Below, piece by piece: positions 4,341 to 51,614 of a DNA stretch of 64,000 bases. Both the position numbers and the translations under genes were made by a program. The stretch comes from an uncultured virus (IMG/VR IMGVR_UViG_3300014969_000015) (Duplodnaviria; Heunggongvirae; Uroviricota; Caudoviricetes), in IMG/VR virus record IMGVR_UViG_3300014969_000015; one strand, 5' to 3'. Under the pieces are notes generated by a model, which was given only the letters and a program-made list of their open reading frames with translations, had not been told where the DNA came from and ran no database searches. Position 1 is the first letter of the stretch. Each line of letters begins with the position of its first letter.

Positions 4341-5090
4341 ATGAAAGTTGTTTTTCTTGACATCGACGGGGTACTCAATCACAGCGCTGTGCGACACACC
4401 GCCCTGCCAACTTCAGAAGAGCCACTACCCATACCGATCGCTCCCGAATGCATGGTGCGGCTCAATCGACTCATTGCGGAAACCGGTGCCAAGATTGTCA
4501 TCTCGTCGAGCTGGCGAAAATTCGCAAGGTGGCAAGACCTCGGTCCGGCCCTTGTACGCCACGGCCTTATGGCCGAGGTGATTGGAGAAACACCGGACCT
4601 AGTAAACGATACCGCCTGGCTTGAAAGGTGGCACCAGCGCGAGGGTGGCCCGTTTCCGTATGAACGTCTCGAACGCGGTTGGGAAATTCGGGAGTGGTTG
4701 GCGCACTTCGTGACGGGGTGCTGCTCCTGTGGACACGCTCGCGATCTGCACGACGGCGGTATCGACGAATGTTTTTACAACGACCGCCCATCAGGGGCCA
4801 CCGGATGTCTATGCTGCCGATTTGACGGCAGTCCGCTTACGGGATTTGTCATCCTCGACGACTGCTCCGACATGGACGAACTGAAATCTTGGCGCGTGCT
4901 AACGGATCCCATCGTAGGGCTCGATGAGCCGGACATCGAGCGTGCGAAGTGGCTGCTAGAGCGCTCCGCGCCAGGTATCGAGGAAGCTCGCAGGAGGGCG
5001 CTCGGAATCATTGAGGTCCCAGGACGGGGGGCGCGCGACATCGATACGGACAGACTAGCTACGATTCTGACGCTTTCGAGATTGACGTAA
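4341..5090 (+). CDS. HAD-superfamily phosphatase (Swiss Army Knife RNA-repair-like HAD) with an inserted Cys/His module
   Basis: motif I VFLDIDGVLN, motif II IVISSSWR, ERGWEI, motif IV FVILDD. Confidence 0.85.
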   Translation: MKVVFLDIDGVLNHSAVRHTALPTSEEPLPIPIAPECMVRLNRLIAETGAKIVISSSWRKFARWQDLGPALVRHGLMAEVIGETPDLVNDTAWLERWHQREGGPFPYERLERGWEIREWLAHFVTGCCSCGHARDLHDGGIDECFYNDRPSGATGCLCCRFDGSPLTGFVILDDCSDMDELKSWRVLTDPIVGLDEPDIERAKWLLERSAPGIEEARRRALGIIEVPGRGARDIDTDRLATILTLSRLT

Positions 5091-5557: not shown

Positions 5558-6112
5558 GTGAACTGTCGACACGACCTCGCGAACGGAACGTGCATGCGGT
5601 GCATGCGGTGCTACCCGAGCAACCCCTACAACCGACTGCTCGCGGATCGCGTCGATCCAAATGTTGACCGATCGATCCCTGCTGGGGAGCCGCATACGCG
5701 TAACGCTGCCACCAAGGTCCTTGTCTCACGCCTGTGGGCGCTTTATGCATGGCCTGAGCAGAATCTTCCCGTGCGCGAACTGACGGTCGCGAAACTCCTC
5801 GCATACCGTGCGCAGCCTGACTACGTGAGTGATGAAGAGAGAACCCGGAAGCGCCCGACACGTGAATGGGACTACGGGCGAATCCGACACTTCTACGACT
5901 GCCTTCTGGCTGGCAAGGTGCTGGACGCGATCGAGGTTGATAACGTTTGCAACTACGGGCGGATCTATCCTGAGCCCATTCTGCTCGATGGGCATCACCG
6001 GTTGGCAGCTTCCTATCTAGCAGAGGCGTCAAGCATCTTCATTCACTATGGAGGAAGGCTCGATCTCTTGCGATACCTCAGGGGGACACGTAAGACGTGC
6101 CCCGTGGAGTAG
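5558..6112 (+). CDS. ParB/Srx-like N-terminal domain protein
   Basis: DAIEVD...ILLDGHHRLAA, the ParB/Srx arginine-patch motif. Confidence 0.6.
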   Translation: MNCRHDLANGTCMRCMRCYPSNPYNRLLADRVDPNVDRSIPAGEPHTRNAATKVLVSRLWALYAWPEQNLPVRELTVAKLLAYRAQPDYVSDEERTRKRPTREWDYGRIRHFYDCLLAGKVLDAIEVDNVCNYGRIYPEPILLDGHHRLAASYLAEASSIFIHYGGRLDLLRYLRGTRKTCPVE

Positions 6113-11914: not shown

Positions 11915-12553
11915 TTAGGTCACGAGCCAAATTCCATCGACGCTTGGACGGCTGCCATCGAAAATAAGGCAGACCCCTCCACCCGCCGGGATGACGTAGT
12001 TTGTCAATCCAGGGGCCAGGATGAGCCCTCCCGCCGTACCAGCGGCAGCCAAGTTTGCCAGGGTCAGTGTCTGTCCCAGGCTCATCCCCAGGTTATGAAT
12101 CCAGAGCACGCGCCCATCCGGGTTAGGACTGTTCACGATGATCGAATTGATCGTGGTGCCCGCCGTGTCAGGCACTATCTGCACGCGTGAAATAACGTTG
12201 ATTCCTGGGGCCCCGGTCGTGTTGAGCTCATCGTAGAGCGGATCGGCTGGATCCACGGTGATCGAGTTGTTCACCGTCAGCATGTTCTGCGCGAGCATGC
12301 CGCTGCCGGTCAGGAAAAGTTGCGACGTGAGGACCTGGAGATTGCCGTTGGAGGTGCTGAAAACAGCATTTCCCCCGCGAAGCAACAGGAAGGTCGTGGG
12401 ATCATTTTGCAGGAGGATTCCTTTGGAGAAATCATCCGTCGTGATCTCGATCTTGTTGAGATCCGCGTTCTGATCCAGGACGATCTTTGCCCCGGCGTCG
12501 GTCGTGTTGAGGGTGACGGAGTCGGATACGAGGTTCGATGCAGTGGAACTCAT
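11915..12553 (-). CDS. beta-rich virion/tail-fibre-like protein (leaderless)
   Basis: Thr/Asn/Gly/Leu-rich with few charged residues; C-terminal DGRVLWIHNLG..LTLAN...GVCLIFDG...W; TAGGAT-N6-ATG. Confidence 0.5.
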   Translation of the reverse strand: MSSTASNLVSDSVTLNTTDAGAKIVLDQNADLNKIEITTDDFSKGILLQNDPTTFLLLRGGNAVFSTSNGNLQVLTSQLFLTGSGMLAQNMLTVNNSITVDPADPLYDELNTTGAPGINVISRVQIVPDTAGTTINSIIVNSPNPDGRVLWIHNLGMSLGQTLTLANLAAAGTAGGLILAPGLTNYVIPAGGGVCLIFDGSRPSVDGIWLVT

Positions 12554-15500
12554 GCCGGTATCCTACTACGTAGGCCTTCATCCCACAAAAATCAGGGAGG
12601 CTGCGACCGATCTGCCATCAAGTTAGATAACGGACACGGGGCGTTACGTGGATGGGGCGTCTTGGGATAAGATCGATCCCGAATGACCAGACACGCGGGC
12701 GAAAAACGTAAGCGTAAGAAGCCGCCCCAGGAAGTGCTTCACGTGCGAGCGCGACCTCCGCGCAGCGCGCGGACGGGTCGCCCAGGCACGACCTCCGTGT
12801 GCCTCTGGACTAGCTTCAAAGCCTGAATCGATGAAGCCCGGACGCTTGAATCCTAATTCCTTATTCCTCGATCGCCCATTGACGGCCGAGGAGCGCGCTG
12901 CGCACGACGAGGACCCGCGCCCCGGCGTATGGGGTGGAACGCGCGACGCGGATCTGCGAAAGCTGTCGCAGGATGAAACGGACGCGCTCGTTCGGATCGA
13001 GCTGTGGCAGGAGGCGAGCCGCCGCGGAGATGACATCGGCGAGATAGAAGGCGCCCTGGGGAACCTGACGAGCGCGATCGGCCGCTGCCAGCGCGGCGGA
13101 ATCGACTCCGATCCGCTGGTCCGCTTACTTGCCTATCGTGCCTGGGGCGATCGAGATAGGCGCTGGTTCGAAGGGCGCGGCATACGTAAGGGAGATGCCG
13201 TAGATCGCATCGGGATGGACAAATCAGGGGCACTGATTGTGAGCACGTCTTGGGATCGCGCATTTGAGTGCGGCTACTCCCTGGAAGAGGGACATCCTGG
13301 CGCGCTGGTGATCTGTCGGATCGATATGGACCGTCCATCCGGCCCCCACCCTGGGCTCTATGGATCCGCGCGGCGCGGAGTCCTCGATATCCCCTGCCGT
13401 GTTAGTGATCGCCAACGCCTCCCAGGGTTCACGGCGAATGCATTGCAGCGGCTACGCTGGTATACGAGTTGATACCCGTGTTTTAGGCTGCCCGCCTCGT
13501 CGAGCTCTCCATCTCCCGCATCGTCACTTGATCTGAACGGTCGCCCTCGCAGGACACGGCCTGTCACAAATCACGGGAGTCTCGACGTTGCGCCGTTCTG
13601 CTCGTCGACAGCCACCGACTCCACGTGGAGAGTCATCTCGTCTCGAGCCGTGACCTTGGCCTTGTAGGCGTCGCGCCCGTCGAGCCACTTCAACTGGATC
13701 ACGTCACCGACCTTCACGTCAGGACTGCCGACATAGCCGCCGAACGTCTCCGGCGCTTCTTCGCCGGACGGATCGTGCTCGATGACGCGGTATCCGAATA
13801 CCAGCATCACGCGACTCCGGGCTGATCGCGCCTGAATATCGGCCAGCGCCTGCGCATGCCCTCATCACTCATGTGCCAGCCGCGGTCGGTCAGGTAGTCG
13901 AGCGTCGTAGCGTAAACCGCCCGCGACGTGTCGACGTCGACGCGCTCTCCGGGGCAATGCGTGGTGAGTCCACCCTCATACCCGCCGCACCGCGAACACA
14001 CGGAGAGCGTACAGTGCCAGCAGGAGCAGCACGTAGACACCTTTCCGCCCTTGAGGCAGTCAGTGACCTGGACGTGGCGCGAGTCGGCACCTGGACGCGC
14101 GTTGGGGTTCGCGAGCCGTGCCGCGATCGCTTGTTTGATGTCTTCGGCTTCGCGCTTGGCGAGCCACAACTGCGGTGTTGGAGCATCGATTTCTTCGGTC
14201 ATCGTTTCAGCCTCTTTTCATTGAGTCTTCGCACATTTTTGGCGGCAGGTCCCACATTTCACGTGCCTTGGCCTCGACAGCGTTGCACAAGTCTTTCGCC
14301 GCCTGTTCGGCGTCGTGGATCTGCGCGCCAATCTCGCGAAATCGATCAGCGAACTGCTCATCCACGACCTTGCGCGCGGCGACCATCACCATAGCGTCTA
14401 ACTGGCGCTGTACCTCGTCGGTAAAGTCTTGGAAATCCATTTCGACACCGTTAACGCATACCTTGACCTCATAGATATGCTCCAGTCCGGGCTGTACCTT
14501 GAAGGTCTCCATAACCTTCTCGAACAACTGGCCGCGCTTGGCACGCGAACCGCTGAGCAGTGTCACAAGGAACAAGTGATCAACAGCCTGGCGCGGGTTA
14601 AGCTTTGCAGTCATTTTCCATTCCTTTTCCGAATCGTCCTTGTGACAGGATCCTTACCGTTAATTCAGCCACTTCGTCTGCGGTCGCGCCATGCGCGCAA
14701 TACCGTTGTTTTCGGCTTCGGTGTCACCAGCCGATAACACGTACCGCTGCACTATGTTTTTGGATTGATGATGAAGCCCCGACTTTGAAGCGCTCCAATG
14801 AGCGCTATCCGTTGCCGATAGGCCTCAGAAGCTCGAAAGTCCTCCATATTCCATTCTCCATCCGCGTTCCAGGCCGCGCACAGCTCTTCATAAGCCTCGC
14901 GCCCCTGAGCTGGTGTGAGATCCGTCGTGCCAATAATCCATGTGAAGCTTTTGTCTTGGGCACGGAGAACCAAACTGACGACTGCCTTATCAACCTCGAT
15001 TAGCTCACCGTTTAGGATGATTCCTTCTGCGTTGTGGATGCCGAAAAACAAGTCTTCCGGCAGAAATCCCAAGCGTCGCATGACCTCTCTGGCGAACGCC
15101 CATTCCAGCAGAATCGGATCCATCGGCACCCCCAATTTAGACATCCGCGATCTCCTGCCCATCGTTCGTTTCTTCGCCACGCCGTTCGAAACGGGCATTG
15201 TAAGCACGGGCCGCTTTCATTGTTGCGCTCTTGGCTGCGGTGTTCTCCGCGCGTTTGCGAACTTGCAGGCGAGGTCGCTGTTTCTTACGGTCCGGCCGTT
15301 GACCTCGCATCCCGGCTTGTAGGGCATCAGTCGCAGCCGCCGCATGGACATCCGCGCACTGAACGACCCAAGCCTCAAGAGTAAGACCGCATGCCCGAGC
15401 ACATGCACCAAAGTCATGGCGCTGCTGAACGGAGAGCTTGATCAAGAGCGCTTCAGAAGTCATTGCCGTGTGCTTAGTGGTCATCCATGTCCTTTCCCAA

Positions 15501-16679
15501 CGTTTCAGCGCTCCATGTGCGCTAGGCTATCAGCCGCGTCGACGCGGTCGAGGAGCTTTTGCAGATCTTGTTTGATGCGATCTTGACGGCACTGTACCTG
15601 GAGCAACGGCGGGTCGAGGCTGTCGTCGTACGGTCGATCCAGGATCGCCTCAATGCCCAGACGAAGAGCTTGGGCCTCGCCCCCATGGACCGCCCCCGCA
15701 TGTACTGGACAGCCGTGCTCAAGGGCTAGCTGGCGTACCGACAGCCTCCCAATTTCGGTGCACGCCTCGATGTGCTGCTCGTGAGACAGCGGCAGCTCAA
15801 GCTGCCCCGCTGACAGCTGGCCGACCAGTCCGTAAAGTACGTGGCTCGCCGCGATTTCGACAGCCTCGGCAACGCTGTCATGTCCAGGTCCCGGAACAAC
15901 AACCCGCGCAAGTGGTCGCATCGTGGAGCCTTCGCTGCTTGGAACCTCGTCCTCGTCGGGTTCTTGATCAGCGTCAATCACGAGGGCGAATTTGTCGGTG
16001 CACCCCGCATCAACCACAGCCGACTGCAGCCCACCCACGTGAATATCCTCGTCGTCATCGCCGTTCGGCACTCCGACCCGGACAACGACCTGCTGATCGA
16101 GAGCTTCATGATCTGGGTTTTCAACCGCAAACTGCTGCAGCGCTTCAAGAAGTCTGCGGAACGTCATCGAATCCAGCCGAAGACAATGCCCGTCCCCCAT
16201 GCCGTGACGAGTAGCATTCCCATAAAGAGCCACCGCCCCAGCGAGTCTCCGATAACAGCGCCGACCTCAGGAGCACTTTTATCTACACCTTTACTATTCT
16301 TCGTATGGAACACTCCGAGAATCACCAGATCCGCGATGGACAAGACCCCAAACCACACTCCAATTGAGGGACCCGCTCCATACTGCATTGAACAAAACCA
16401 CGACCAGAGCTTGCTGGCAGACCACGCTTCAAGGAAGGAGCCTATTGGGATGGCAAGGGCCGTCCACACCAAGATGCCAACAGCATTAGCAGAAATACTC
16501 TTGTATGCGCGCATCTTAAACCTTTCGTCGATAATGCCTAGCTTAACGCTTGTTTGCTCGTATCTTTCCCAGCGCTACGCAGTGCTCGACCTCCTTCAGC
16601 AGAGCCCTGTGCAAATGCTTACAGCCGGATGCGCAGAGTGACGGCATCCGGTTGCTCTACGCAACTGCAGCTGCCTCCC

Positions 16680-18295: not shown

Positions 18296-19416
18296 ATGTC
18301 GAGACATGGCGTGATAGTCTCAGCGGAGATTAATCAGCTGTCTCGCAGCGCTGATCATTCAGGCAAGCCTCCCATGGCCTTGATTAAAAGCGCCGTTTTT
18401 AACCAAGCCGGATCGTGCGGATTTTTAAGCAGCCACTGCATGGCAGCAGCCCAAACGACATTGACCAGGAGGACTTCCAGGCTCACGCTCCATACTCCAC
18501 GGCCGAACCCGGCAGCTTCATACACAGCGCGCGCTGCCGATCCAGAGCCCCCCGCGTGTCCTGCAACCACGCATGTATGGCAAAAACCAAGTCAGAATCG
18601 TCGGTATGGTGACGAGACGAGACAAGATTCAAGTCCGAAAAGGTCACAGGATGGTTGCTCGGACATTCACCATCGAAGGACGTGTTGTAAAGCGCGTTGA
18701 TAACGCCTCGATCGCCACACTCGCGACACCTGTAATCGTAGTGGTGCTTGGCCGTTTCCTTGAGCAGTCTTGCCCACACGATCGGAATCGACACAGAAAG
18801 CTTCACCTCGTACTCGAACCCATACTGCATCGGCACGACAACAGTCACGATCACAACCCCAACAGCGCCCGGAAACGCTCCTGCATTAGTGCCTCCCCCT
18901 GTTGCACCCCGGCATCGAATGCCTCTCCAACCAGCGCCCCGATGTGCGAAAACGTAATCGCGGGGGCTGCACAGCGAAGCACTGCCGCTTGCAGATCAGT
19001 AAACGCTTGATGCCTCGCGGGCTGCTGCTCCACCGCGAAATTTGCTTTGTCTGCTTTCTTGTTAGCTTCCTGCAGCGCTTTCAGCTCTGCACGCACCGCA
19101 TCCGCACGTACGCGGATGTTAAGACCTGCCAAGAACAACTCAACAATCTCGATGCGATGATCATCTGGAGATGCAGGCCCTACGCAATAAAACCCGTGCA
19201 TGACGTATCCGCCGCGCCATGGATAGTGAAACTCAGGGGTCTCATAAATCTTGACGCTGCTGCCGCCACCGCATGCGCCACTTACGTTAAGCGTTTGATT
19301 GGACATGAACTCCAGGACCAAGCAACAAATGTACCGGTTGCAAGAGGCCGTTTACAAATGAGGGGTCGTGCAGTACCCCGTGTCCAGCGGTCATCAACCC
19401 GTGGAATATGAGACAC

Positions 19417-19432
19417 GGGTAGTAGGCCACCC
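19417..19432. promoter_or_regulatory. GGGTA-N6-(T/C)ACCC site at the distal end of the CRISPR array
   Basis: gacac-gggta-gtaggc-caccc. Confidence 0.55.
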
Positions 19433-19751
19433 AGACACGTTTCACGGCGACCATCCGTCCCGGACGGGCAGCCGCCGCGGGCAAGCTCAATTCACGCGTG
19501 ACCAATTCACGCTTGATTAATCCACATATGATCAATCCACACGTGATCGCCACAGGATCAGTCCCGAGCATCAACCGCGCGGGCAAGCGCTACTCCACCA
19601 TCAACACCGGTCCCGAGCACCCACCGCTCGGGCAAGCTCTAACATGACATGCGATCTCGAATAGTCCCGTCCCGAATGACAACTACTCGGGCAAGCTCAA
19701 AGGCTGCACCCTTCGCCACGGCTGATCCGTCCCAGACGTCAATCGCCAGAG

Positions 19752-20044
19752 CAACCTCTAGACAAATTCTGCCAATCGGCGGCGCAGCACTGCTGTCCCG
19801 CGCGTCAACCGCGCGGGTAGGATCCACTGGCCTTCGGTCCCAAGCGTCAACCTCTAGACAAATTCCGCCAATCGGCGGCGCAGCACTGCTGTCCCACGCG
19901 TCAACCGCGCGGGCAGGATCCACTGGCCTTCGGTCCCAAGCGTCAACCTCTAGACAAATTCCGCCAATCGGCGGCGCAGCACTGCTGTCCCGCGCGTCAA
20001 CCGCGCGGGTAGGATCCACTGGCCTTCGGTCCCAAGCGTCAACC
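19752..20044. repeat. 96-bp tandem triplication of a repeat-spacer unit inside the array
   Basis: near-identical units start at 19752, 19848 and 19944. Confidence 0.9.
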
Positions 20045-21746
20045 GCTCAGGCAAGTTTTACCAAGGCTCTTGCGAAAATGTAAACGTAAGCCGCATGTCT
20101 TTGTCCCAAGCGTCAACCGCTCAGGCAGGCCCCATTCTTGCGCGATCCAGGTGGACATGTCCAGAGCGTCAACCGCTCGGGCAGGCCATTAATTGCCGCA
20201 GTCCTGCCCCGCACGTCAACCGCGCGAGCAGACCCAATGGGCGGCACCGCACGTCAATCGCGCGAGCATTTCGCAGGTCCCGCGCATCAACCGCGCGGGC
20301 AAGCTTTTACATTCTGCCCCGCACATCAGCTGTGCAAGCAAGTCCACTCTCACAGCGACGGTCGATACCGCCCCTCTAACAGCAACGGCCGGTACCGCAT
20401 GTCCCGCGCATCAACCAAGCGGGCAAGCTCTTCCATTCTGCCCCACACATCAGCCGTGCAAGCAAGTCCCATCTCACAGCAACGGCCTCTACCGCGTGTC
20501 CCGCGCATCAACCAAGCGGGCAAGTTCCATTTTGAGGAAGCTTGCTACCACATGCCGGACCTCAGTCCCGAGCGTTAACCGCGCGGGCAAGCTCTATCAG
20601 GCAAACAAGTAGCAGCCAATGTCCCAAGTGTCAGCCGCTTAGGCAAGCTTTATCGCATCCCCACGCTGGCACTCCCGACAATTGCGTTTCTATTTCCGGA
20701 CGGAAGAGCTCTAGGAGCAAGGCATTGTTCCCCTGTCCCATGCATCAACTACACGGGCAAGCTTTATCTTATCCGCATTGCTCAGATTGCTATAGCTGTC
20801 CCACCACGACACGATGGTAGGCGCGCACGCATGTGTCCCGAACGTCAACCGCTCAGGCAGACTTTATCATAACGATTCACCGTCATGCGTTGCGCGGCAG
20901 TTGGAGTCCTGAGCGTCGACCGTTCAGGCAAGCTCTGCTACGATGATCCACATTATCGACACACACCTGCGTGGAATAACCTCGGGCAGATCGTCCTGAT
21001 CGTCAGCCACTCAGGCAAACTCTAGCCATGCACCTAGCAGCTAGGCCAGTGGTCGCGGACTCGGTGCGTCCCGAGCGGCAGCCGCTCAGGCAGGCTCTAT
21101 CCTAGAAGGTTTACCGCGCGGACGATGACGGTCTCCCTCGTCCCGAGCGTCAACCGCGCGGGCAGTCTCTATCACAGTAAGGATCGTCACGTCCTGGTCC
21201 CGAGCGTCAACCACTCAGGTAAGTTCTAGCGCTCCAACAAATGCCTAATAGCATTGACGGCAAATGTGCTTGTTCACGGCGCCGTTCGCTGTCCCGAACG
21301 TCAACCACTCAGGCAAGCTCTATCACCGAGCTATCATCGGTCATTGACACCCTCTTCGACTCGCGCCGTGTGTTGGTCTTGAGCGTTAATCGCTTAAGCA
21401 AACGCTAGCCGCACATCTCGTTTCGACCCGTCAGCACGACAACTACGCGCTATCAGCCCCCGCAGAGGAGCAAGCAGTGTCCCGAGCGCCAACCGCTCAG
21501 GCAAGCTCCGCCAAAGTAGTCCTGAACGTCAATCGCTCAGGCAGACTCTAAACACAGCGCTGATCCCATCACGATCCGCGTTGTCTCAACCGCCCAAGTA
21601 GTCCTGAACATCAACCGCTCAGGCAAACCGTGTCGCGCAGTGATGCCTCAAAATGTCCCCCAGCACGCTCAAGTCCCGAGCGCCAACCGCTCAGGCAAGT
21701 TCTATCACTCCAAGCTTTGAAGAAAGCGCCATCGCGACCGCATGGC

Positions 21747-21975
21747 GTCCTGAGCGTCAACCGCTCAGGCAAACGCTATTCCAAGCCTATTCGCGACCGC
21801 TCAGACAAGCGTGGTGGCCGCTCAAGTCACTTGATCTGCTGCTAGTCCTGAACGTCAGCCGCTCAGGCAAGCGCTATTCCAAGCCTATTCGCGACCGCTC
21901 AGACAAGCGTGGTGGCCGCTCAAGTCACTTGATCTGCTAGTCCTGAACGTCAGCCGCTCAGGCAAGCGCTATTCC
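21747..21975. repeat. ~98-bp duplicated repeat-spacer unit inside the array
   Basis: aagcctattcgcgaccgctcagacaagcgtggtggccgctcaagtcacttgatctgct follows the repeats at both 21747 and 21845. Confidence 0.9.
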
Positions 21976-23129
21976 ATTGATATTCCACGTGGAACCATCA
22001 GTGGCTGGCGAGTCCTGTGCGTCAACCGCTCAGGCAAGCTTTATCACGTTGTCGATCTGGGTAACTCGAAGGTTGTTTCCTGCACGGTAGCCGCTTAGGC
22101 AATCGCTATCATTCAATGCACAGACCTCTGTCGCTTAGGTAAGCTCTATCACCAGCGAGGACCGATCTTGTCCTGAACGTCAACCGTTTAGGCAGGCACC
22201 ATCACTCGATTGCTCCATCACCGACGATTCCGTTCGTCCTGAACGTCAACCGCTCAGGCAAGCGCTATCATGAAGAAACGTACCGAGTCAGCGGCGTCGT
22301 CCTGAACGGCAGCCGCTCAGGCAAGCTCTATATCGCGCGTCGCGTCTTTGAACATCAACCGCTCTATCACGAGTCAACGTGCAGGTCTCGTCCGTCCTAA
22401 GCGTCAGCCGCTCAGGCAAGCGCTATCCACGCGGAAACGTGTCGAGACAGCGCCCGGCGCGCGTTCGTCCTGTCCTGAACGTCAGCCGCTCAGGCAAACT
22501 CCATCCCCGCACCTCAACCGCTCAGGCAAACTCCATCACCGCGACGACTTGACCTGGTCCTGAACGTCAGCCGCTCAGGCATGCTCTGTTGTTTCCGGTC
22601 CTACATGTCCTGAACGTTAACCGCTCAGGCAAGCGCTATCATGCGTAGCTTGCGCTCGGCGAGGTCCGAGGCATCGTCGTCCTGAACGTCAGCCGCGCAG
22701 GCATGCTCTATCGCCGCCGCGCCACAGGGGCCGACATGGCCTGTTGTTGTCCTGAACGTCAGCCGCTCAGGCATGCGCTATCACCCCAGGTTCCAGGTAG
22801 CGGTACCTTTCACCTTGCGAGCCCCAAGCGTCAACCGCTCAGGCAGGCGCTATCACAGGCATTCATGCTCGTGCAGTCCCAAGCGTCAACCGCTCAGGCA
22901 GGCGCTATCACCATCCAAATGCCCAGGAGCGCGGCGGGGGTGGCGACGTCAGGCGCTATCACGAGAAGGCCGCACGGGGCGCGTGCCGCGTCCTGAATGT
23001 CTCAGGCAAGCTCTTTATCGCTCACCGCCAGCCCTTGCCCTGTTGCTTGTCCCAAGCGACAACCGCTCACAGTCAATAGCTATTCAATTGTCATCCCGCG
23101 ATCTTACTACCTCGATCGCGAGCACTGCC

Positions 23130-25625
23130 TCAGACGGACGAGCCTCCCACATCCGAACGAGAACCTTTGCCACGCTCTCGTCGCCGTTTCGGGAGCTTAT
23201 CAGGCTTCCCCTCGTTAGGGGGCACGGAGCCGCGCGAAGGCGCGGCCGGCACCGGTCCGCTCGTCAGTCCACGCCGATGCAGTAGATTGCGACCGGCATT
23301 CGCATCCTGGTCCCAGGTCCGCCCACACGCTTCGCACTGGATCTCGATCGTGCGTGCAAAATCTGCATGCTCTTGGTCACGACCGCACCAAGCGCATTCC
23401 CGGGTCGACTTTCTGCCACGCGCCACATCGATCACGGTGCTCGCGGTCTTGTGAGCGGCCTGCGCGATGGCCAGGCGCAGCTCCCCTGGTGCCGCCATCC
23501 GCGCCTGCCGCCGCTGCTCGCGGCCCTCGTGAGGATCTCCCTCCTCCGGGGCGAGACGGTTCCAGCCCTCGATGTCCACGATCTTCATCTGACCTTCACG
23601 ATTCTCGCTGCGGCACAGTCCGTCCTCGACGAGGATCGTCTGGTACGTGCGGGCCAGCTCCGCGGCGATCTGGCGCCATACCTCGCGGCGGTGTGCGATC
23701 GTCCGATCGCGCATGTGCGCCTCCCAGCTCCCGAGGTGGCGATCTTGCTTGGCCCATGCCTGGAGCCCTGCAAGCATCTCCGTGTCCCCCTCGAAGCGAT
23801 TTTCTTCGCGCTGCCAAGTATCGATGAGGCGCTGCAGCTTACGGGGGGCCCGCCACTGCGGCAAGCCCTTCGCGCGGTCCGCGAACCATGGCGGTAGAGC
23901 CGCGAGCGCGCGATCCAGGAGCCCGGACGGACTGTTATCCGCCGCGGGGACCGGATCCGCCGCGGGGACCGGACGATGTGCCGGGACAGGCTTTCGCCCG
24001 CTGATCCAAAGGACCAGTTGATCTCGTGCACTGTCGAGCTCTCGTGAACGGATCTGTGCGATCGAGTAAACCTTCGCGAGGCGCTGCCAGAGTCCATCCG
24101 GTGCACAGATCTCACGCTCTCGCCCGTGCTCGTCGACCAGATATGCGACGCGCAGCCCGGTCTGATTCCCGTTCTCATCGAAGATCCGCCGCCATCCGAT
24201 ATCGATCGCGCAAGTACCTCCGACAGCCAGCGGCTGCGAGGGGCGATGGAATGTATCGCTCTCGATCGTGAGCTGCACCCTCCACTCGTAGTGGATACCG
24301 ACGCGCCAGCGGTGAACGTACACCCACAGGATCTCGGCATCCTTGGGCATCCGGCGATGGTGCGTGAGCGGGAAGCGGACCCACGTGCTCTCCCGCTTCG
24401 CGGGACCCCAGCCGAACTGCATCTCGAGGTACTGCCCGTCGAGACGGGCCGGGATCTCCTGATAACCCTCCCCGTGACGCTGCCTCTTAGCCTTCCCGCG
24501 GAAGGGCTTGGCAATCCGTCTCCGAGTCGTCCGTGGAAGTTGTTCCCAGCCTTCGGGCAGGGACGTCATTCGTACGCGGACGTCGTCCCCGGAGTAGAGG
24601 TCATCCGCCGTGACGCTGTAAAGCCTTCCATCGAGGGGAATGCGGGCATCGCCAAGGAAGCGAGTGAGCAGCTCCCAGTGCCCGATAACGTAGCCTGCAG
24701 CTTTGCCAAGCGACGTCTTGTGCTTGACCTGCTCACCGAGCCAAATCTTGAGTTCCTCGAGCACCGCTGCGGACTCGGTGCGCCGAAGTGCAAAGCGCTG
24801 CACGAGATCGCCCTCTGCCCGATCGTCGATCTGGCGCAGCTTGGCAATCAGCTCGAGAGCGCGCGAAGCTTCTGGATGATCGACCTTGGCCTCCTCGAAC
24901 TTTCGGGAGCAGTGCGCCCAACAGCCCTCCGTGTCACGGGCCCGGGGCAGCTGACGGCCGATCGATCCTTCGCCTTCGTAACGCTGGAAGATCGGCGGGC
25001 GCCCCGTCGAGTCGACAGAGCGCTCCACGGCGCGCTCGATGTTGATATACGTACCGTGCATGAGGCCTTTGGCGGAAAACTCCGCGCGCGCGGCCAAGCG
25101 CCGCTCCGCGGCCAACTCTCGAACTGCGCCGTAACGGGGCTGATGGTGGTCGCGTACCTCGGACAAACCGCGGGCGTCCTTGACGTCGCGCCAAGCCTTG
25201 GCACAGTCCACCTTCAGTGCTTTGATGTGCTGCTTGATTGCCTCGTCGTCACGATGCTCGGGCGCCCGCCCCGCCTTCGCGGCACGCAGGGCCGTATAGG
25301 CCGCGTCCAACCCTGCACTCTTGGCCTCCCAGCGCACGGTCGCTTCGCGCGTGAGAGGATGATCCAGATCGATCGCTCGGAAGCTCCCACGTAGCTCGAT
25401 TTCGATCTCGGTCAGCCGGCAACGGTACTGATGCGCCAACCAAAACTGCTCATCGACCAACTTCCGGTGCTCTGGATCCTCAGGAGGCAAGATCCGATAA
25501 CTGTAGATCCGCGTGGGCTTGGTCGACGTCTTGCGCGCGCGTGATTTACGGGCTTTGGGCGGATTGCTCGAAGCTGCGTCGAGCGCACCAGGAACATTGG
25601 CCGAAGAGGTCTGATTATCGAGCAT
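23130..25625 (-). CDS. cas12m: Cas12m-like (type V-M / V-U1, TnpB-derived) RNA-guided effector with an IS66-transposase-derived insertion
   Basis: EQFWLAHQYR, GLMHGTY, FQRYEGEGSIGRQL, HRRMPKDAEI, RuvC-I CAIDIGWR, QWRAPRKL, WAKQDRHL, HRREVWRQIAAEL, RuvC-II ILVED, AAPGELR, Zn finger CAWC..CEAC and RuvC-III WDQDANA, all collinear with Cas12m; adjacent CRISPR array; likely start 25625 after aaaaggatga (ORF open from 25652). Confidence 0.85.
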   Translation of the reverse strand: MLDNQTSSANVPGALDAASSNPPKARKSRARKTSTKPTRIYSYRILPPEDPEHRKLVDEQFWLAHQYRCRLTEIEIELRGSFRAIDLDHPLTREATVRWEAKSAGLDAAYTALRAAKAGRAPEHRDDEAIKQHIKALKVDCAKAWRDVKDARGLSEVRDHHQPRYGAVRELAAERRLAARAEFSAKGLMHGTYINIERAVERSVDSTGRPPIFQRYEGEGSIGRQLPRARDTEGCWAHCSRKFEEAKVDHPEASRALELIAKLRQIDDRAEGDLVQRFALRRTESAAVLEELKIWLGEQVKHKTSLGKAAGYVIGHWELLTRFLGDARIPLDGRLYSVTADDLYSGDDVRVRMTSLPEGWEQLPRTTRRRIAKPFRGKAKRQRHGEGYQEIPARLDGQYLEMQFGWGPAKRESTWVRFPLTHHRRMPKDAEILWVYVHRWRVGIHYEWRVQLTIESDTFHRPSQPLAVGGTCAIDIGWRRIFDENGNQTGLRVAYLVDEHGREREICAPDGLWQRLAKVYSIAQIRSRELDSARDQLVLWISGRKPVPAHRPVPAADPVPAADNSPSGLLDRALAALPPWFADRAKGLPQWRAPRKLQRLIDTWQREENRFEGDTEMLAGLQAWAKQDRHLGSWEAHMRDRTIAHRREVWRQIAAELARTYQTILVEDGLCRSENREGQMKIVDIEGWNRLAPEEGDPHEGREQRRQARMAAPGELRLAIAQAAHKTASTVIDVARGRKSTRECAWCGRDQEHADFARTIEIQCEACGRTWDQDANAGRNLLHRRGLTSGPVPAAPSRGSVPPNEGKPDKLPKRRRERGKGSRSDVGGSSV
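24625..24935 (-). mobile_element. in-frame IS66-family transposase (TnpC) fragment inside the effector
   Basis: GCWAHCSRKFEEA...ALELIAKL..ID...RR..S..VLEELK.WL......SLGKAAGY...HWELLTRFLGDARIPLD matches the IS66 CWAHxRRKF...LGKAxxY...W..LxRFLxDGRxPLDNN segment. Confidence 0.8.
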
Positions 25626-25742
25626 TTTCATCCTTTTTAGAGCTAGGAACAAATCTCAGCGCGCCTTGCGAGCAAGGACATGAGCACCGCAAAGCGGCGG
25701 CGTCACGTGCTGGTGCGCTACTATGACTGGCAGTCTTCCGTC

Positions 25743-26312
25743 TCAGAAAGTAGCAACGCGCCCGGCGCGTTCGAGGCGCGCCCCAATTTCTTTCCAGGCC
25801 GCCATCTCACGATGCATCCTCGCGATATCGGCCTCGGACACGGGCTGCCGAACCCCGTTGATTGTCCAGAAGGCCTCTCCGCTGAGTAAGCGCTCCAAGT
25901 AGCGAAGCTTCGCCGGCACCGCCTTGCGAAGCTCGCGCATGTCCGCACCCGGAAATGTCTCGACGAAGGCAAGAATCTTTTGATCATCTGTATAGGGCCC
26001 AACACCATCCCAATGCACATGCCCCTTATCATCAAGATACATTGCAGCGCCCCATTCAATGTACGTAGAGGCCTTGGGCTTGTTCCAAGCGCCTGTCTTG
26101 GGATGCAGCGTCTGGGAGACGAACCGCCAGCCCTTCTTAGGTTTTTCCTCCAGCCAGTACCGAATCTGTGTGCGGGCACTAAATCCATACGGGTAGTCCT
26201 CGACGAGGTACGCCGAGGCCGGGCTTGTGTGCCCATAAATAGGTGTCTTGCTGCCTACGGACGGAATAGCAAGCGCCTCAGCAATGTCCCGATCAAACTG
26301 TGCCTTGTTCAT
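25743..26312 (-). CDS. conserved phage hypothetical protein with N-terminal shared helical tag, directly upstream of the effector
   Basis: MNKAQFDRDIAEALA...DYPYGF..RTQIRYWLE..KGWRFVSQT..PKTG.WNKPKASTY. Confidence 0.7.
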   Translation of the reverse strand: MNKAQFDRDIAEALAIPSVGSKTPIYGHTSPASAYLVEDYPYGFSARTQIRYWLEEKPKKGWRFVSQTLHPKTGAWNKPKASTYIEWGAAMYLDDKGHVHWDGVGPYTDDQKILAFVETFPGADMRELRKAVPAKLRYLERLLSGEAFWTINGVRQPVSEADIARMHREMAAWKEIGARLERAGRVATF

Positions 26313-26596
26313 ACGGCCTCGATGAGGGCAAGATCTCGATAGATGAGCGCGCGCAGATAACTCGCCTGCGTGCGCAGGGCGCTCTTGGAGCGCTTGCGAA
26401 GACGGGCGGCTGCCCGCCGACTGATCTTCACCTGAACGAGCACGGACAGGTCTTGTTTTTTCTTCGAGACAGGCATCGAGGAGGTACCCTACATTCACAT
26501 CCGAACGCATGTCAACCGCATACTGAACCCATAACTTATGCAACGCGATGTGAAACTGATACACGTACGCGCCTCCATGTGTGGAGGGCCAGACAC

Positions 26597-26612
26597 GGGT
26601 ACCAAGCTACCC
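26597..26612. promoter_or_regulatory. GGGTA-N6-TACCC site
   Basis: gacac-gggta-ccaagc-taccc between divergent genes. Confidence 0.65.
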
Positions 26613-26678
26613 AGCCTTTACAATTGCTGTGTTACACGGCTTCGAGAAACGGCATGCGGATCGCAAGTCCGTCCAAAC

Positions 26679-27008
26679 ATGCAACAGCTAGCGCGCTCAG
26701 CCGAGCAGACCGACAGCTTCCACGAGGTCGTCGAGCAGTCCGCCGAGCAGTCCGCGGGACCTGACGTGGAAGAGCCCACGATCCTGGCCGATCTGATGAA
26801 CCGCCCGCTCACCGAGGCCAAGCGCCTCGCGGCTGCCGCGTTCGAGCGCCGTTATCTGGTACAGGTGATGGAGCGCGCAGGCGGCTCGGTCTCTGGGGGA
26901 GCACGACTCTCCGGTCTCGATCGCACCAACTTTCGTCGGCTGCTCCAGCGCCACGGCCTCCACGGGACCGCCTGCACACACACGGTCAGTTTGGAGCCGG
27001 AGCTGTAA
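26679..27008 (+). CDS. stand-alone Fis-type HTH (C-terminal domain of sigma54 activators)
   Basis: LTEAKR....FERRYL..VMERAGGSVSGGARLSGLDRTNFRRLLQRHGL. Confidence 0.8.
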   Translation: MQQLARSAEQTDSFHEVVEQSAEQSAGPDVEEPTILADLMNRPLTEAKRLAAAAFERRYLVQVMERAGGSVSGGARLSGLDRTNFRRLLQRHGLHGTACTHTVSLEPEL

Positions 27009-27808
27009 CACTTCGCTGTTATCCGTGGGACCCGTGAGAACTGCATGTGCCATCGCTCTCAAAATCGATGCGCGTACCGCCAATGGTACTCCACCAAGCG
27101 CTTCTGAGCAGCGTAAGGCCCGCGAACTCATTGCTTATATCCTCAACGCGCGGGAGCCATGACGCATACCAAATACATCCTGCCCGATGGCAGATCCATC
27201 ATTGCGATTTCCCCTGGGACCCTCGAGCCCGTACCCATGCTCACGATCGAGCTTTCACCCGACGATGAGCTGTGGTCCCGGGGTCAGCGAATCCCAGGCA
27301 CGCAGCGCAGATTCATGCTGGCAGAAAGAGCCCAAGGCCTATGAACGACGAATCCCTATCCGACGATCGTATCACGTGCTTGCTCGATGAGACCAAACGC
27401 TTCAAGCAGGTCCTCAAACCCGAAGCCTTCGCCCAGTGGTTCGACTCTGAGAAGACAGCCCTTGCTGTCGAGGTGCAGCGTTACCGCGCCATGTTACGCA
27501 GGCTGGAGATGCTCGCGAACAGGCTCAGGAGCCCCGCTTGGGAATCCCTGGCTGCAGAGCTACGCACCGCAATATCCGGTGTCATGTACCTTTATCGTTG
27601 CGAGACACACGGGGACCGCCCGCTCCTATCGCAGTATCACGCGGGTGGTGTTCTCTGCTGGGACATCGATGTGGTCCGAGGAAAGTCTTGCACGCAGATT
27701 GCCCGACTAATCGGCGCGGTTAACGTTCCCTGACCAGCCCCTCGCGCAGAATCCCACGCGCTGAGCTTCCCTATCGCAGTACCATGCATTGCAGCCGCAT
27801 CCCCTACG

Positions 27809-45692: not shown

Positions 45693-48568
45693 GCCTCAAG
45701 ATACCATCCACCACCCGCAGCGCGCCAGATCCGCAAGCGCTTGGTTCTTCAAGGCCTTCCCATACCACATGGTGGGTGCCCAGATACCCGGCTCCTAGCT
45801 GCCACACCCTTGTGAAGGGTAGAGGCAGGGTGAAAATGCACTCACAGCCACTAATCACGGGCTTGCCTTGGGGTCCTGCTCGGCACATAGATCGCAAGGA
45901 GCCTTTGTCCATGAATAAGCCTACGAGCACGCATGCAGCGCTGGCAGCCATGGCGCTGGAAGACGCGAGGAAGACGCGACTTGACGAAGAAGCGTCTGGT
46001 CGCGTGCGCCTCGACGCAATCGAGGCTGTGCGCTCGTGCGGACTTTCGCTCCGAGAGGCAGTGACTGCCATCGACCATGTTTTGCTACACGGTCACCACT
46101 ATCTCCATGACGGTGTGGGACGCTAATGTCGGCACTGAAGTACTCGTATGAAGACCTCGTGGGGTACGCAAGCCTTGCGATCGATGAGCATTTCAAAGAG
46201 CATCCTGGGGAGATCCACAAAGTTATTGGAGAGCTAAGAAAAGCGTTTCCGATGTCTCTTCGAGATGCCCTCGATATCGTCAAAGAAGCGCGCCTCCGTA
46301 GGCTAGCTGACCTTAAAATTCTCATCCGGCGCGGATGAGCTGCCTATCTCTGACTATGCCGTCACTATTCGCGGTCACCGATCTATCAAGGGCGCTGAAT
46401 GATCATCAAAACTGAGACAATTAACGGCAGGCAAATTGAGATCCACGAGCATGCCTCCGGGCATCGACGCTTTTGGGCGAAGGTGGATCAGCAAGAGTTA
46501 CTGAAGGCTGGGAGCCTGCGCGAAAGATTGTTTACAACGGCCGATGCAGCACGGGCTGCTGCCCTCAAAGAGACCGAGATTTCTCAGACAGATGGTCTAC
46601 CCGTACCGGGCGCGCGGGCGCGTGGGCGCGGAGCCCGGCAGCGCACACGCGAGAAGGAACGGGAAAATGCAGGGGGACCTCGTCCCGTACCTGGCTATTC
46701 TAACTTCGGAGGAGGGGGTCCATTCGCTCCCATGGGCACTCCGCCTCGGACACCAAAGTGAGGTTTGCCATGCGTCTCCGACTTTGCGCGCTCCTTCTGA
46801 TCAGCCGTGGCATCACGGCCTGCACCACTGAGAACCTGCCCATCGATTCACCATCCGCGGTCCTCTTGATCTGCGGAGAAGCTCCCCGACCCTCGGCTAC
46901 ACCGTCAATTACGTATTTACTCCAAGACGGGGTGTGGGCCGCCATGATGTCCCAATCAGATCTCGAAGCTCTCATGGTTGATCAAGACCGCCTATCCTCA
47001 TGGGAGCGTTGTGCTACCGAGGCGTTCGTGCTGACCTGCCCACGGAAAAATTGAGGATGCGCGACTGTCCAAAGCAAAAATCCCCCAGCACCCCACAATG
47101 CCACAAGCACCTGGATGAGGTGCTAGCCAGGATTTACACAATCTGGCCCGCCGATCGTGAGGGCGTGTTGGCCACGTCATCCGGCGCCTGGCACCAGGAT
47201 CGTCACTGGCTGGTCCTCGACATCACGGATGGCTTGGACCAAGCGCGTGTCGTCGAAGGACCGGTTTCTCGAGAGACAGCCCTGCAGCGACAGCTAGAGC
47301 TCCGCACAATTTGCAGGGACCTGCCGTGACGCTCGCCGACAAGCGCAAGGTGATCGAGGTGCTGATGTGCACCGGAGATCCCAACAAACTACTGCTGTTC
47401 GAGGTCGCGTCAGCCTTGGGCCGTAGCAGCGCTCCGGGGTATCGCGCCCTCGATGCCGTCCAGTTCGACAGCGACAACTATACCGGGCGCTGTCTCGAGG
47501 CTGCCTACCGTCTGATCGAGTCGTCGCCGACACTGCGGGGGGAATGGTTCGGATCGCAATGAGTGAAACAACGCAGGAAGAAGCACGCTGGGAAACCTGG
47601 GACCGCAACCGACTGCTCAAGCTCGTGGAGAAGCTACCGAGCACAATTCGAATTGGTATCTCACACCATGCCGATAGCATGTGGGCGCGGCGGCGGTCGC
47701 GGCATGCCGCGGCGGTCGGGAGGGCAGCGTGAGCCAACCGCGTGCGGATCTCCGTCATGGGCCGATGGGCTGGATCTTCCCGGGTCCATGGGAAGAGCGC
47801 CAACGGTATGACGACGTCGACTGCGCTCGCGGCATCCGAGCGCGGTGCGGCTGCGGGGAGTGCACCACACACCGCGCTGTCGTAACCCGCAACAAGGCGC
47901 TCACTCGCCTCGGAGCCCGCCGCGAGTCGTTGCAGACACTGCGGCGGGAATGGTTCGCTCGCAAGTCTTACCCCAACAGCTTACATAGGGAAGTTCCATG
48001 ATTGATGACAAAACCACGCTGACACATCAGCGGACCGCTCTCGTCGAGAGCCTCCTGACCCCGCTGTCAGCGCAAGAGCGCATTCGTGTTCAAGGGGAGC
48101 TTTCCCTCATCAATGCCAAGATCAAGGCACAGAACACAACGCTAGCTGCACAGCTCAAAGCCGCCGCCGACCAGCGCAAGGTGTCAGGGCTGCTGGAGGC
48201 TCAAGCTAACGCCGCAAGGGCTCAGGGAAGAACCCCACGGGTCCCTGATCCGTCGACACCAGCGACCGCAACGGACGCTTGGATTGACGCCGTGCTGCTC
48301 CATCACGACATTGACTTCACACGTACGGCTGCCGGCAAGATCTCGCTCAACGTTCAACGTTTCACCGCCCTATAGCGCCGTCCTTGAAATGCTTATTGCA
48401 GGAATCTATGCACAGGCTCGAGGACAGGCGCTGCCAGAGCTGCCGCTGATTCAACCTAAAGCCCAGGCCCCTGAGCCCCGTCGCCCATCCAAGTCCAAGA
48501 ATGCCAAGAAGCGCTGAAGCGGACCTGGACAACGCGGCGACGCCGCGGAGTGTGTCGAGCTGTTCATG

Positions 48569-50895: not shown

Positions 50896-51131
50896 GTGCA
50901 GGGGCCCGCGCCAGCCCGCGGTCTCCTAGGGCCGCAGTACGCCGAGTGGCCGAAGGGGGTCGCGCACCAGAGGGCCACGCGCCAGAGGGTCACGCACCAG
51001 TCATGACAACCAACACAAACACAAACCACGCCGACATTGCGCCTCCCCCGGGCGCGGAGGCTCGTTGCGAGGAGACATTACTCCTCCCCCGGGCGAGGAG
51101 GCTTGTTGCGAGGAGCGAAAAGGAGCCTTCC

Positions 51132-51614
51132 ATGAAGAAAGCGCGCCTGCGTAAACAGGTGCAAAGCAAGCTCGTGGGCCAAGCGCTCACAGCGCGCGAA
51201 AATGCGGTCCTTTGGCTCGTCATTGAAGGCCTGTCAAACAAGTTGATCGCGGATCGAATGGCGCTCTCTGAGCACACCGTGAAGTTTCATTTGAGAAACG
51301 CCGGGAAGAAAATTGGAACAACCTCACGCACCAAAGCTGCCATCGATTTTGCTTTAGGCCAAGGCCGGACCGCTCTCGCGCGTATCTCGCCAGCCTCTGA
51401 AAAATCAGAGCTTGCTGCGAAACGTGACAAGCTTCTTGAGGACAACTGGATCGGAGGTTTCGCAGTGGCCCTTGCAGAGGTCCTCCGCTATGGAGGAGGA
51501 TACACTTGCGTGTGCCAAGCAGCACGAGCAGCCGGTGTAACCCTCGCGGCTGCACAAGAGGCAGGAGTTCCCGCGCTTCATCTAGAAACGCTCAAGAGCG
51601 CGCTGACCCCGTGA
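51132..51614 (+). CDS. LuxR-type HTH regulator with extra C-terminal domain
   Basis: LTARENAVLWLVIEGLSNKLIADRMALSEHTVKFHLRNAGKKIG; RBS aaggag. Confidence 0.85.
   Translation: MKKARLRKQVQSKLVGQALTARENAVLWLVIEGLSNKLIADRMALSEHTVKFHLRNAGKKIGTTSRTKAAIDFALGQGRTALARISPASEKSELAAKRDKLLEDNWIGGFAVALAEVLRYGGGYTCVCQAARAAGVTLAAAQEAGVPALHLETLKSALTP

Follow-up and report, generated by a model that had tools for sequence, protein, structure and literature searches.

Introduction

The repeats of a clustered regularly interspaced short palindromic repeat (CRISPR) array are normally near-identical, since each new repeat is copied from its neighbour, and in ordinary arrays degenerate repeats are found at the trailer end. 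Here we describe an array of about 55 units in which nearly all repeats differ and yet remain paired in the same hairpin. It lies on the minus strand of a 64,000-nucleotide (nt) stretch of DNA, IMG/VR record IMGVR_UViG_3300014969_000015, which is catalogued as an uncultured virus; the whole of this stretch is called the window. The array, at 19457–23082, belongs to a type V-M CRISPR locus and follows a gene for a Cas12m-like effector. Several of its properties had been proposed in an earlier reading of the DNA, made without database searches (the sequence-only reading).

The closest described systems are the type V-M Cas12m loci (MmCas12m2, GoCas12m and MsCas12m; PMC10442227, PMC11013384). Tested Cas12m members bind target DNA without cutting it and process their own precursor CRISPR RNA (pre-crRNA) (PMC11013384). 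In the 36-nt scaffold of Cas12m2, the seven nt at the 5' end are disordered, the 3' helix is bound and a non-canonical G-A pair involves the bound A(-2); a guide-target duplex of 17 bp is reported to be optimal (PMC10442227). The repeat-derived part of the GoCas12m crRNA is about 30 nt long (PMC11013384). The effector described here is homologous to these proteins in sequence and fold, and its D-E-D triad matches that of the tested members that bind DNA without cutting. Also shared are a repeat length of 36 nt, with a helix towards the 3' end and AC immediately preceding the guide, the co-directional arrangement of array and gene, and the lack of adaptation genes seen nearby. The locus differs from those described in that nearly all repeats differ, that spacers range from 3 to 78 nt in an array of about 55 units, that the effector has 840 amino acids (aa; about 705 in the clade) and carries an IS66-derived insert, and that the carrier appears to be a large mobile element that may be a huge phage or a megaplasmid.

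A second comparison is with the regulatory mini-arrays and CRISPR-like RNAs that have degenerate repeats (the CreR/CreA, scaRNA and tracr-L class; Shmakov et al., 2023, PMC10120712). As in these, the repeats are degenerate and the stem-loop and spacer-adjacent positions are kept, and the idea that such units still load the effector may apply here. The mini-arrays consist of one or two units that partly match a promoter of the same locus, whereas about 55 units make up the present array, whose self-matches within the 60 kb in view do not exceed chance. The Cas12m locus of myxophage MV-1 (bioRxiv 10.64898/2026.09.14.751636) has one consensus repeat, eight spacers and a 610-aa effector. Like that virus-borne array, which lacks cas1 and cas2, our locus places a Cas12m gene and an array on a mobile element without adaptation genes and with no protospacers found; its carrier, with few PHROG hits, is only possibly a phage. 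A limited full-text literature search found no earlier description of a whole long array of this kind, which is not proof of absence.

Organization of the array and its leader

The main features of the locus are as follows.
19457–23082, minus strand: CRISPR array of about 55 units with a 36-nt repeat (repeat search, fuzzy search and covariance model)
23083–23129, minus strand: leader, with a hairpin CTCGCGATC..GATCGCGGG right after the stop codon and then the motif ATGACAATTGAATAG (comparison with related loci)
23130–25652, minus strand: cas12m-like effector gene, an 840-aa open reading frame (ORF) from TTG (structure matches, fold and Pfam)
24618–24935, minus strand: in-frame insert derived from an IS66 transposase, at about aa 240–345 of the effector (Pfam DDE_Tnp_IS66, E 3e-18, profile positions 150–255 of 284)

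A repeat search of the window recovered a 36-nt family of 41 copies, and a fuzzy search allowing up to 13 mismatches located 42 full-length repeats, all in a single orientation, between 19561 and 22911. A covariance model built from these 42 repeats and run unfiltered over the whole 64-kb window found 51 matches at E < 0.05 between 19457 and 23019, every one of them on the minus strand; an additional weaker unit lies at 23049–23082, and outside the array nothing matched at E < 1. By model score, 45 repeats reach at least 30 bits (the good repeats below) and about 10 units are truncated or broken. On the minus strand the repeat reads 5' GTGATAGAGCTTG, an 8-nt arm, GTTGA, a second 8-nt arm and AC 3'. 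Few repeats are identical, as the sequence-only reading had noted: 41 of the 42 full-length repeats have distinct sequences.

That reading had put spacer lengths at under 20 to over 60 nt, and the range after the 45 good repeats is wider still (3–78 nt; commonest length, 36 nt). Spacing is irregular, with spacers of 30–40 nt after only 13 of the 45, and a usable guide length (17 nt or more) follows 38 of them. Decayed repeat remnants lie inside many of the long "spacers". Apart from duplicated units, the spacers are mutually unrelated.

The effector ORF ends 47 nt upstream of the first array unit, and the leader fills this interval. Its motif ATGACAATTGAATAG (23080–23094, minus strand) abuts the truncated first repeat and is found nowhere else in the window. 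Ten related loci have this layout ahead of the first repeat as well, in 11 stretches (L005 has two); the aligned leaders include those of the window (23080–23129, minus strand), L001 (9080–9125) and L009 (12310–12359). TGACAA.TGAATA is invariant in 12 of 12 aligned leaders. The leader stem varies by locus (CTCGCGATC/GATCGCGAG, CCTGCG/CGCAGG or CTTGCG/CGCAAG) and is followed by an invariant TGACAACTGAATAG. RNAalifold found no consensus structure for the 12 leaders, which fall into two hairpin classes that are out of register. The 5' side of the leader hairpin (GGTGCTTGCG) resembles the CTTGC and arm of the repeat, and the hairpin may thus be a repeat-derived element. The conserved leader between gene and first repeat indicates that the array is read on the minus strand with the gene first, and array and effector gene are presumably transcribed in the same direction. 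In L005, a second leader copy lies mid-array (11971–12036).

Conservation of the repeat hairpin

Standard pairs occupy 94.5% of the 328 stem cells of the 8-bp stem in the 42 window repeats (41 distinct). When the 3' letters were shuffled, 89.8 ± 0.8% of cells were paired and none of 500 shuffles reached the observed value; when the partner was slid along the repeat, pairing dropped to 27–42%. Seven of the eight stem pairs have changed on both sides, against 3.2 expected (0 of 500 shuffles), and further pair types number 14 against 10.1 expected (1 of 500 shuffles). These two counts are the measures rated robust to relatedness. Double-change cells number 21, compared with 5.7 in shuffles. Covariation thus exceeds that of the shuffles, and substitutions are not random with respect to stem pairing. 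Among 47 repeats, 31 have all eight pairs, 15 have one mismatch and one has two.

The asymmetry between wobble pairs and their complements points to the orientation of the presumed transcript. The 336 minus-strand cells comprise 268 Watson-Crick pairs, 50 G-U, 7 A-C and 11 others, so that 94.6% are paired on the minus strand and 81.8% on the plus strand. The minus-strand orientation claimed earlier from the G-U pairs is upheld by this count and by the conserved leader. In L001, a related locus with a similarly diverged array, 280 cells comprise 218 Watson-Crick pairs, 44 G-U, 9 A-C and 9 others. At unpaired positions, G-U-making transitions are rarer than the opposite ones in the window (29 vs 72) and about as frequent in L001 (41 vs 38), and mutation bias is therefore not the cause of the asymmetry. 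On folding, the full hairpin was the minimum-energy structure for all six diverged repeats tested when these were read on the minus strand, and for one of the six when read on the plus strand.

The same pairs emerge when no structure is assumed. A scan by mutual information with average product correction (MI-APC), with 112 distinct repeats from eight sources as input, placed 18-30, 20-28, 19-29, 17-31, 16-32 and 15-33 within the top seven pairs. Across the family-wide set of 130 matches, 112 of them distinct, the paired share of cells is 95.3% (83.1% in shuffles), and double-change cells number 115 against 30.4.

Individual variants illustrate how the stem changes. The named combinations of the sequence-only reading were recovered: arm CCTGAGCG occurs with CGTTCAGG, with CGCTCGGG and with CGCTTGGG, and the double compensatory CCCGCGCG/CGCGCGGG is found at 19795 and 19987. 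At pair 16-32, C-G, U-G and U-A states all occur within the array, which looks like a compensatory path via a wobble intermediate. At pair 18-30, both C-U mismatches and C-G pairs are found. Together, these results support the view that wobble and compensatory changes have preserved the hairpin to a degree for which composition, slid registers or mutation bias do not account.

Constraint along the repeat

Conservation is uneven along the repeat, and the earlier description of a nearly invariant GGAC end and a drifting opposite end holds. Positions 1–9 are the least conserved, with a majority frequency of 0.71 in the window and 0.64 in L001. T12, C14 and G34 are invariant in the window (T12 and G34 in the family set as well), G13, A35 and C36 are each at least 90% conserved there, and the loop is nearly fixed. 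A free 5' end and a retained 3' helix and tail fit the scaffold structures of Cas12m2 and GoCas12m, and by analogy G13 and A35 of the array repeat may be the equivalent of the Cas12m2 G-A pair.

The diverged repeats can be seen as a natural read-out of the scaffold positions that a Cas12m effector needs: stem pairs in any sequence; a fixed loop, T12, G13 and G34-A35-C36; and a free stretch of the first 9 nt. Such rules have practical value, as Cas12m is under development for base editing and gene regulation.

The effector

The effector likely starts at the Met at about 25625, where its homologues begin MLD. Sequence matches to solved structures are to Cas12m chain 23vw_A (E 1.6e-35), Cas12m2 (8hio/8hhl, 3e-17) and GoCas12m (8pm4, 2e-12). 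In a Foldseek search with an AlphaFold2 model (mean predicted local distance difference test score, pLDDT, 75.7), Cas12m chains take ranks 1–4 (E 1e-23 to 3e-18), and the next match is Cas12f at E 5e-8. The motifs AIDIGWR, LVEDG and WDQDANA, which hold the RuvC D-E-D triad, align with their counterparts in 23vw_A. Among 25 homologues, D783 does not vary and D484 and E676 hardly do, and the C-terminal zinc-ribbon domain matches Pfam Cas12f1-like_TNB. We identified 68 database homologues, all of them metagenomic and some on contigs of 250–460 kb.

The IS66-derived insert follows the first WED-like strands and is at most 74% identical to real IS66 transposases. It is carried by L001 and by 8 of the 68 database homologues, and is missing from about 30 homologues and from L002 and L005. 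AlphaFold2 models it as a confident helical bundle (block pLDDT means about 73–94). The ratio of nonsynonymous to synonymous substitution rates (dN/dS) of the effector gene is 0.13–0.15 at dS 1.2–1.6 in comparisons with L001, L002 and L005 (0.137 at dS 1.2 for L001), and that of the insert, window versus L001, is 0.22. On these values the effector, insert included, is under purifying selection. The insert looks like a co-opted domain and not a disruption.

Related loci

A metagenome scan for relatives found 30 loci. Protein scans of genome contigs and viral contigs returned no relatives, and Megablast of 19000–27000 against plasmids and phages found no near-identical DNA. Several of the relatives have ordinary arrays. 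L003/L004 has 19 near-identical repeats with spacers of 35–40 nt, and L006, L007, L009 and L012, at 40–48% protein identity, have uniform arrays with the same repeat architecture; the array of L005 is mostly uniform and decays distally. The stems of the uniform-array loci differ from one locus to another by compensated changes.

The array of L001, whose effector bears the insert, is as diverged as that of the window and has compensated stems. So does L011, from a distant clade, which is strongly diverged, and L015 is partly so. Over repeat positions 10–36, mean identity is 0.79 in the window, 0.78 in L001 and 0.88 in L011, compared with 0.97–0.99 in the uniform arrays. The same diverged state in three separate lineages of the effector family points to a recurring condition and not to an accident of a single contig.

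As in ordinary trailer-end degeneration, of which L005, L007 and L012 show the usual form, the leader-distal repeats of the window are the most diverged. Unlike it, the divergence spans the whole array and is patterned by RNA pairing.

Three further observations concern repeats in these loci. L005 has three more degenerate repeats at 13050–13263, past a 502-nt stretch with a small ORF. A solitary window-type repeat (38.5 bits) lies at 5957–5992 on the plus strand of L009, 4 kb upstream of the effector gene. Downstream of the Cas12m homologue of L014, which is otherwise without an array in view, are two repeat-like units (GCTTGCGGCATCAACTGCCGCAGGAC) with very short spacing (12389–12478).

Turnover of the array and adaptation genes

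The following features reflect rearrangement and damage within the array.
19752–20044, minus strand: tandem triplication of a 96-nt block (96 nt x 3.1, 97% matches)
20272–20495, minus strand: older duplication of a two-repeat block (124-nt spacing, 87% identity)
21747–21976, minus strand: tandem duplication of a repeat-spacer unit (98 nt x 2.4, 95% matches)
22948–23082, minus strand: three damaged leader-proximal units (covariance scores 12.2, 25.6 and 11.1 bits; their sequences; intact leader-repeat junctions of relatives)

Tandem Repeats Finder, run on the array, detected internal duplications only. The block at 19752–20044 holds the fully compensated CCCGCGCG/CGCGCGGG repeats together with a truncated repeat.

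Distance to the leader-proximal repeat type increases along the array (r 0.63; Mantel r 0.24, reached by none of 2000 permutations), and adjacent repeats are more similar than average. The gradual change of repeat type from the cas-proximal to the distal end, reported before, is thus real. It is not a simple series, with type CCTGAGCG/CGCTTGGG found at both array ends.

No Cas1, Cas2 or Cas4 domain was identified among the ORFs of the window, in which the element is partly in view, or among 102 ORFs within 10 kb of six related loci. The damaged leader-proximal units, and a leader that abuts a truncated repeat, would hinder normal integration, which is not proof that uptake has stopped. The proposal that the array no longer acquires spacers is plausible on these two grounds. 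It is tempered by the partial view of the element, and relatives without adaptation genes nearby keep uniform arrays.

Parts of the array, spacers included (21080–21945), recur at about 96–98% identity in a soil run of another study; with partial coverage, the contigs differ by 3, 3 and 17 letters over 186, 184 and 419 nt. This recurrence is consistent with a stable array. Joints of repeat, other spacer and repeat (such as 22589>22752, 22643>22557, 21779>22235 and 19646>20565) were dropped as evidence of spacer turnover, as the matching sides are 21–33 nt long and other arrays with similar repeats are possible.

Guides and targets

For 40 guides, the initial 17 nt were compared with the other 60 kb of the window, and they matched it no better than their shuffled counterparts (1 match with at most two mismatches vs 0.4 shuffled; 10 with at most three vs 8.8). 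The array has no match in phages, and three 24-nt spacer starts have no exact match in viral contigs (two scans) or genome contigs (one scan). The L009 array gave nothing against plasmids.

Four candidate matches were set aside. A match to a plasmid-borne Cronobacter RND-adaptor gene (51 nt, 86%, E 2e-4) spans a repeat remnant and was therefore rejected as a protospacer; weaker plasmid hits occurred as well. The spacer at 22430–22471 has a 16-nt internal match to 47483–47498 that lies outside the seed. A 17-nt match of an L003 spacer to the RuvB gene of the window extends to 22 of 36 positions only and misses the 5' seed. Finally, a duplicated 36-nt spacer of L009 (15226–15261 and 15298–15333) matches gene 45 of Gordonia phage Easley over 32 nt (93.8%, E 0.09), which is too weak.

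One spacer start is common to the window and a relative.
20139–20158, minus strand: spacer start shared with L005 over its first 19 nt (ATGTCCA-CCTGGATCGCG), with a 12-nt exact core (E 0.003 in the spacer set)

It recurs with a 1-nt indel directly after a degenerate L005 repeat (from 13124), and the effector genes of window and L005 differ by dS 1.4. No other cross-locus similarity was found among 119 spacers, and this spacer start is the only hint of a fixed guide.

Origin and maintenance of the diverged array

Our preferred explanation, to which we give a probability of about 0.65, is that of a type V-M array in which spacer uptake is rare or has stopped and whose repeats drift singly under the constraint of the crRNA scaffold, on a large soil mobile element without adaptation genes in view. 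We propose that the repeats differ because renewal by copying of the leader-proximal repeat no longer occurs. Each repeat would then evolve separately, held by the needs of the effector (the 8-bp stem, the GTTGA loop, and the flanking CTTG and AC), while the first 9 nt, and spacers towards their 3' ends, would be free to change or shrink. Changes in the stem would be tolerated if they wobble on the RNA strand or are compensated. Duplications and deletions of units would reshape the array, and a minority of units would be dead. By analogy with published Cas12m work, the effector itself would cut pre-crRNA inside the repeat, guides of about 17–20 nt would suffice, and targets would be silenced by DNA binding and not by cutting.

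The kept scaffold suggests that most guides are still in use long after uptake ended. An array of about 55 units, with nearly all repeats different yet paired, would be the outcome when renewal stops but guides stay useful. Adaptation-free CRISPR systems on large mobile elements may thus keep guides for very long times, and arrays like this one may escape surveys.

Several results weigh against this explanation. In about 10 units an arm or the loop, and with it the hairpin, is gone, and the spacer is shorter than 17 nt after 7 of the 45 good repeats. Nearest the leader, about 15 nt are missing from the 5' end of the first unit and the loop is missing from the second, while only the 5' 15 nt remain of the third. 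The absolute excess of pairing is small, as shuffles that keep column composition already give 89.8%; 16 of 47 stems have a mismatch; and stem cells are not independent, owing to duplicated units and shared descent. Family-wide, the both-side pair count is 7 against 6.6 in shuffles (reached by 334 of 500). Part of the pairing pattern could be inherited from repeat variants that co-evolved elsewhere. Lastly, none of the spacers has a convincing target among phages, plasmids, viral and genome contigs (exact 24-nt scans with three spacers), the window and the 30 loci.

A further possibility, which we consider rather improbable, is a hard-wired, inherited operon of about 40 guides for a DNA-binding Cas12m. 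These would act as fixed programmable repressors of host genes or rival elements, with repeat divergence tolerated or favoured as stabilising. If this were so, selection would act on each guide and on its scaffold, and the repeats would be a natural mutational scan of the Cas12m crRNA scaffold. The spacer start shared with L005 is of interest in this respect. The fixed regulatory guide library put forward by the sequence-only reading nevertheless gained no support, with self-matches no more frequent than those of shuffled guides and no protospacer found, and the spacer mapping to the element and to viral databases that it called for gave no convincing match.

Somewhat less probable still is a mosaic array, assembled by recombination, unit capture and duplication between related arrays from donor variants that were already compensated, with little or no selection in place. 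The repeat types do occur in blocks, with the CCTGAGCG/CGCTTGGG type at both ends, and to the three duplications within the array (19752–20044, 20272–20495 and 21747–21976) can be added duplicated units in L001 and L009. Stems that differ between loci by compensated changes are also as expected of such donors, and short contigs from four soil runs weakly suggest exchange, joining the same repeat variants to other spacers across matching sides of 21–33 nt. Against this stand the 41 distinct repeats among 42, many with singleton changes, and the U-G intermediates between C-G and U-A states in the same array; moreover, chimeric arms recombined at random would carry A-C and G-U equally often, unlike the stems observed. 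Recombination between related arrays is probably a contributing factor, as one of the processes acting on a drifting, scaffold-constrained array.

Neutral decay alone is unlikely. Under this explanation the array is a dead relic, and its hairpins look kept because the repeats are young, related and G/C-rich. Decay would leave broken units, very short spacers and damaged repeats next to the leader, as seen here; composition alone gives 89.8% pairing, and no targets were found. However, the excess of G-U over A-C (50:7 in the window, 44:9 in L001) runs counter to the local transition bias. Double changes are 21 where 5.7 are expected, some repeat positions are more constrained than others, purifying selection acts on the effector at dS 1.2, and the pattern recurs in L001 and L011. 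Equally doubtful is adaptive de-repetition, in which divergence is favoured for lowering recombinational spacer loss in an element unable to replace spacers: diverged arrays do occur in three lineages without adaptation genes nearby, and deletions and duplications show recombination acting on the array, but drift under relaxed homogenisation explains the same data without a benefit, and relatives likewise without adaptation genes nearby have kept uniform arrays.

Other features of the window and related loci

Pfam matches at E < 0.001 were obtained for 9 of the 93 window ORFs, including RuvB (56772–57833), a LuxR-type regulator (50946–51614) and HAD_SAK_2 (4341–5090), and PHROG hits in the window are few. 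Several window genes are common to the related loci, in differing order; these loci also carry collagen-like repeat proteins, Lar, an RNA ligase with HNH, and DnaJ. Eight ORFs overlap the array and have no Pfam family at E < 0.09, and Rfam has no family match in 18500–27500.

Promoter and terminator scans gave counts no higher than chance, and one site near the end of the array is listed with that reservation.
19362–19379, minus strand: terminator-like hairpin with a T-rich tail, about 80 nt past the last repeat (weak, with 8 such sites against 6.2 expected in the scanned region)

Upstream of cas12m, at 26309–26476 on the minus strand, is a 55-aa ORF with 60–74% identity in L001, L002 and L005. 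It lacks a Pfam match, and by eye we take it to resemble a small DNA-binding ribbon-helix-helix protein. In L007, a second, unrelated repeat array (ATGCGAGACCTCGCTGTGGTCTCGAC) comes right after the Cas12m array (15009–15715). Between the last two repeats of the window array, at 19487–19548, 4.1 tandem copies of a 15-nt unit (TCAATCCACACGTGA; 76% matches) form what looks like a cluster of binding sites.

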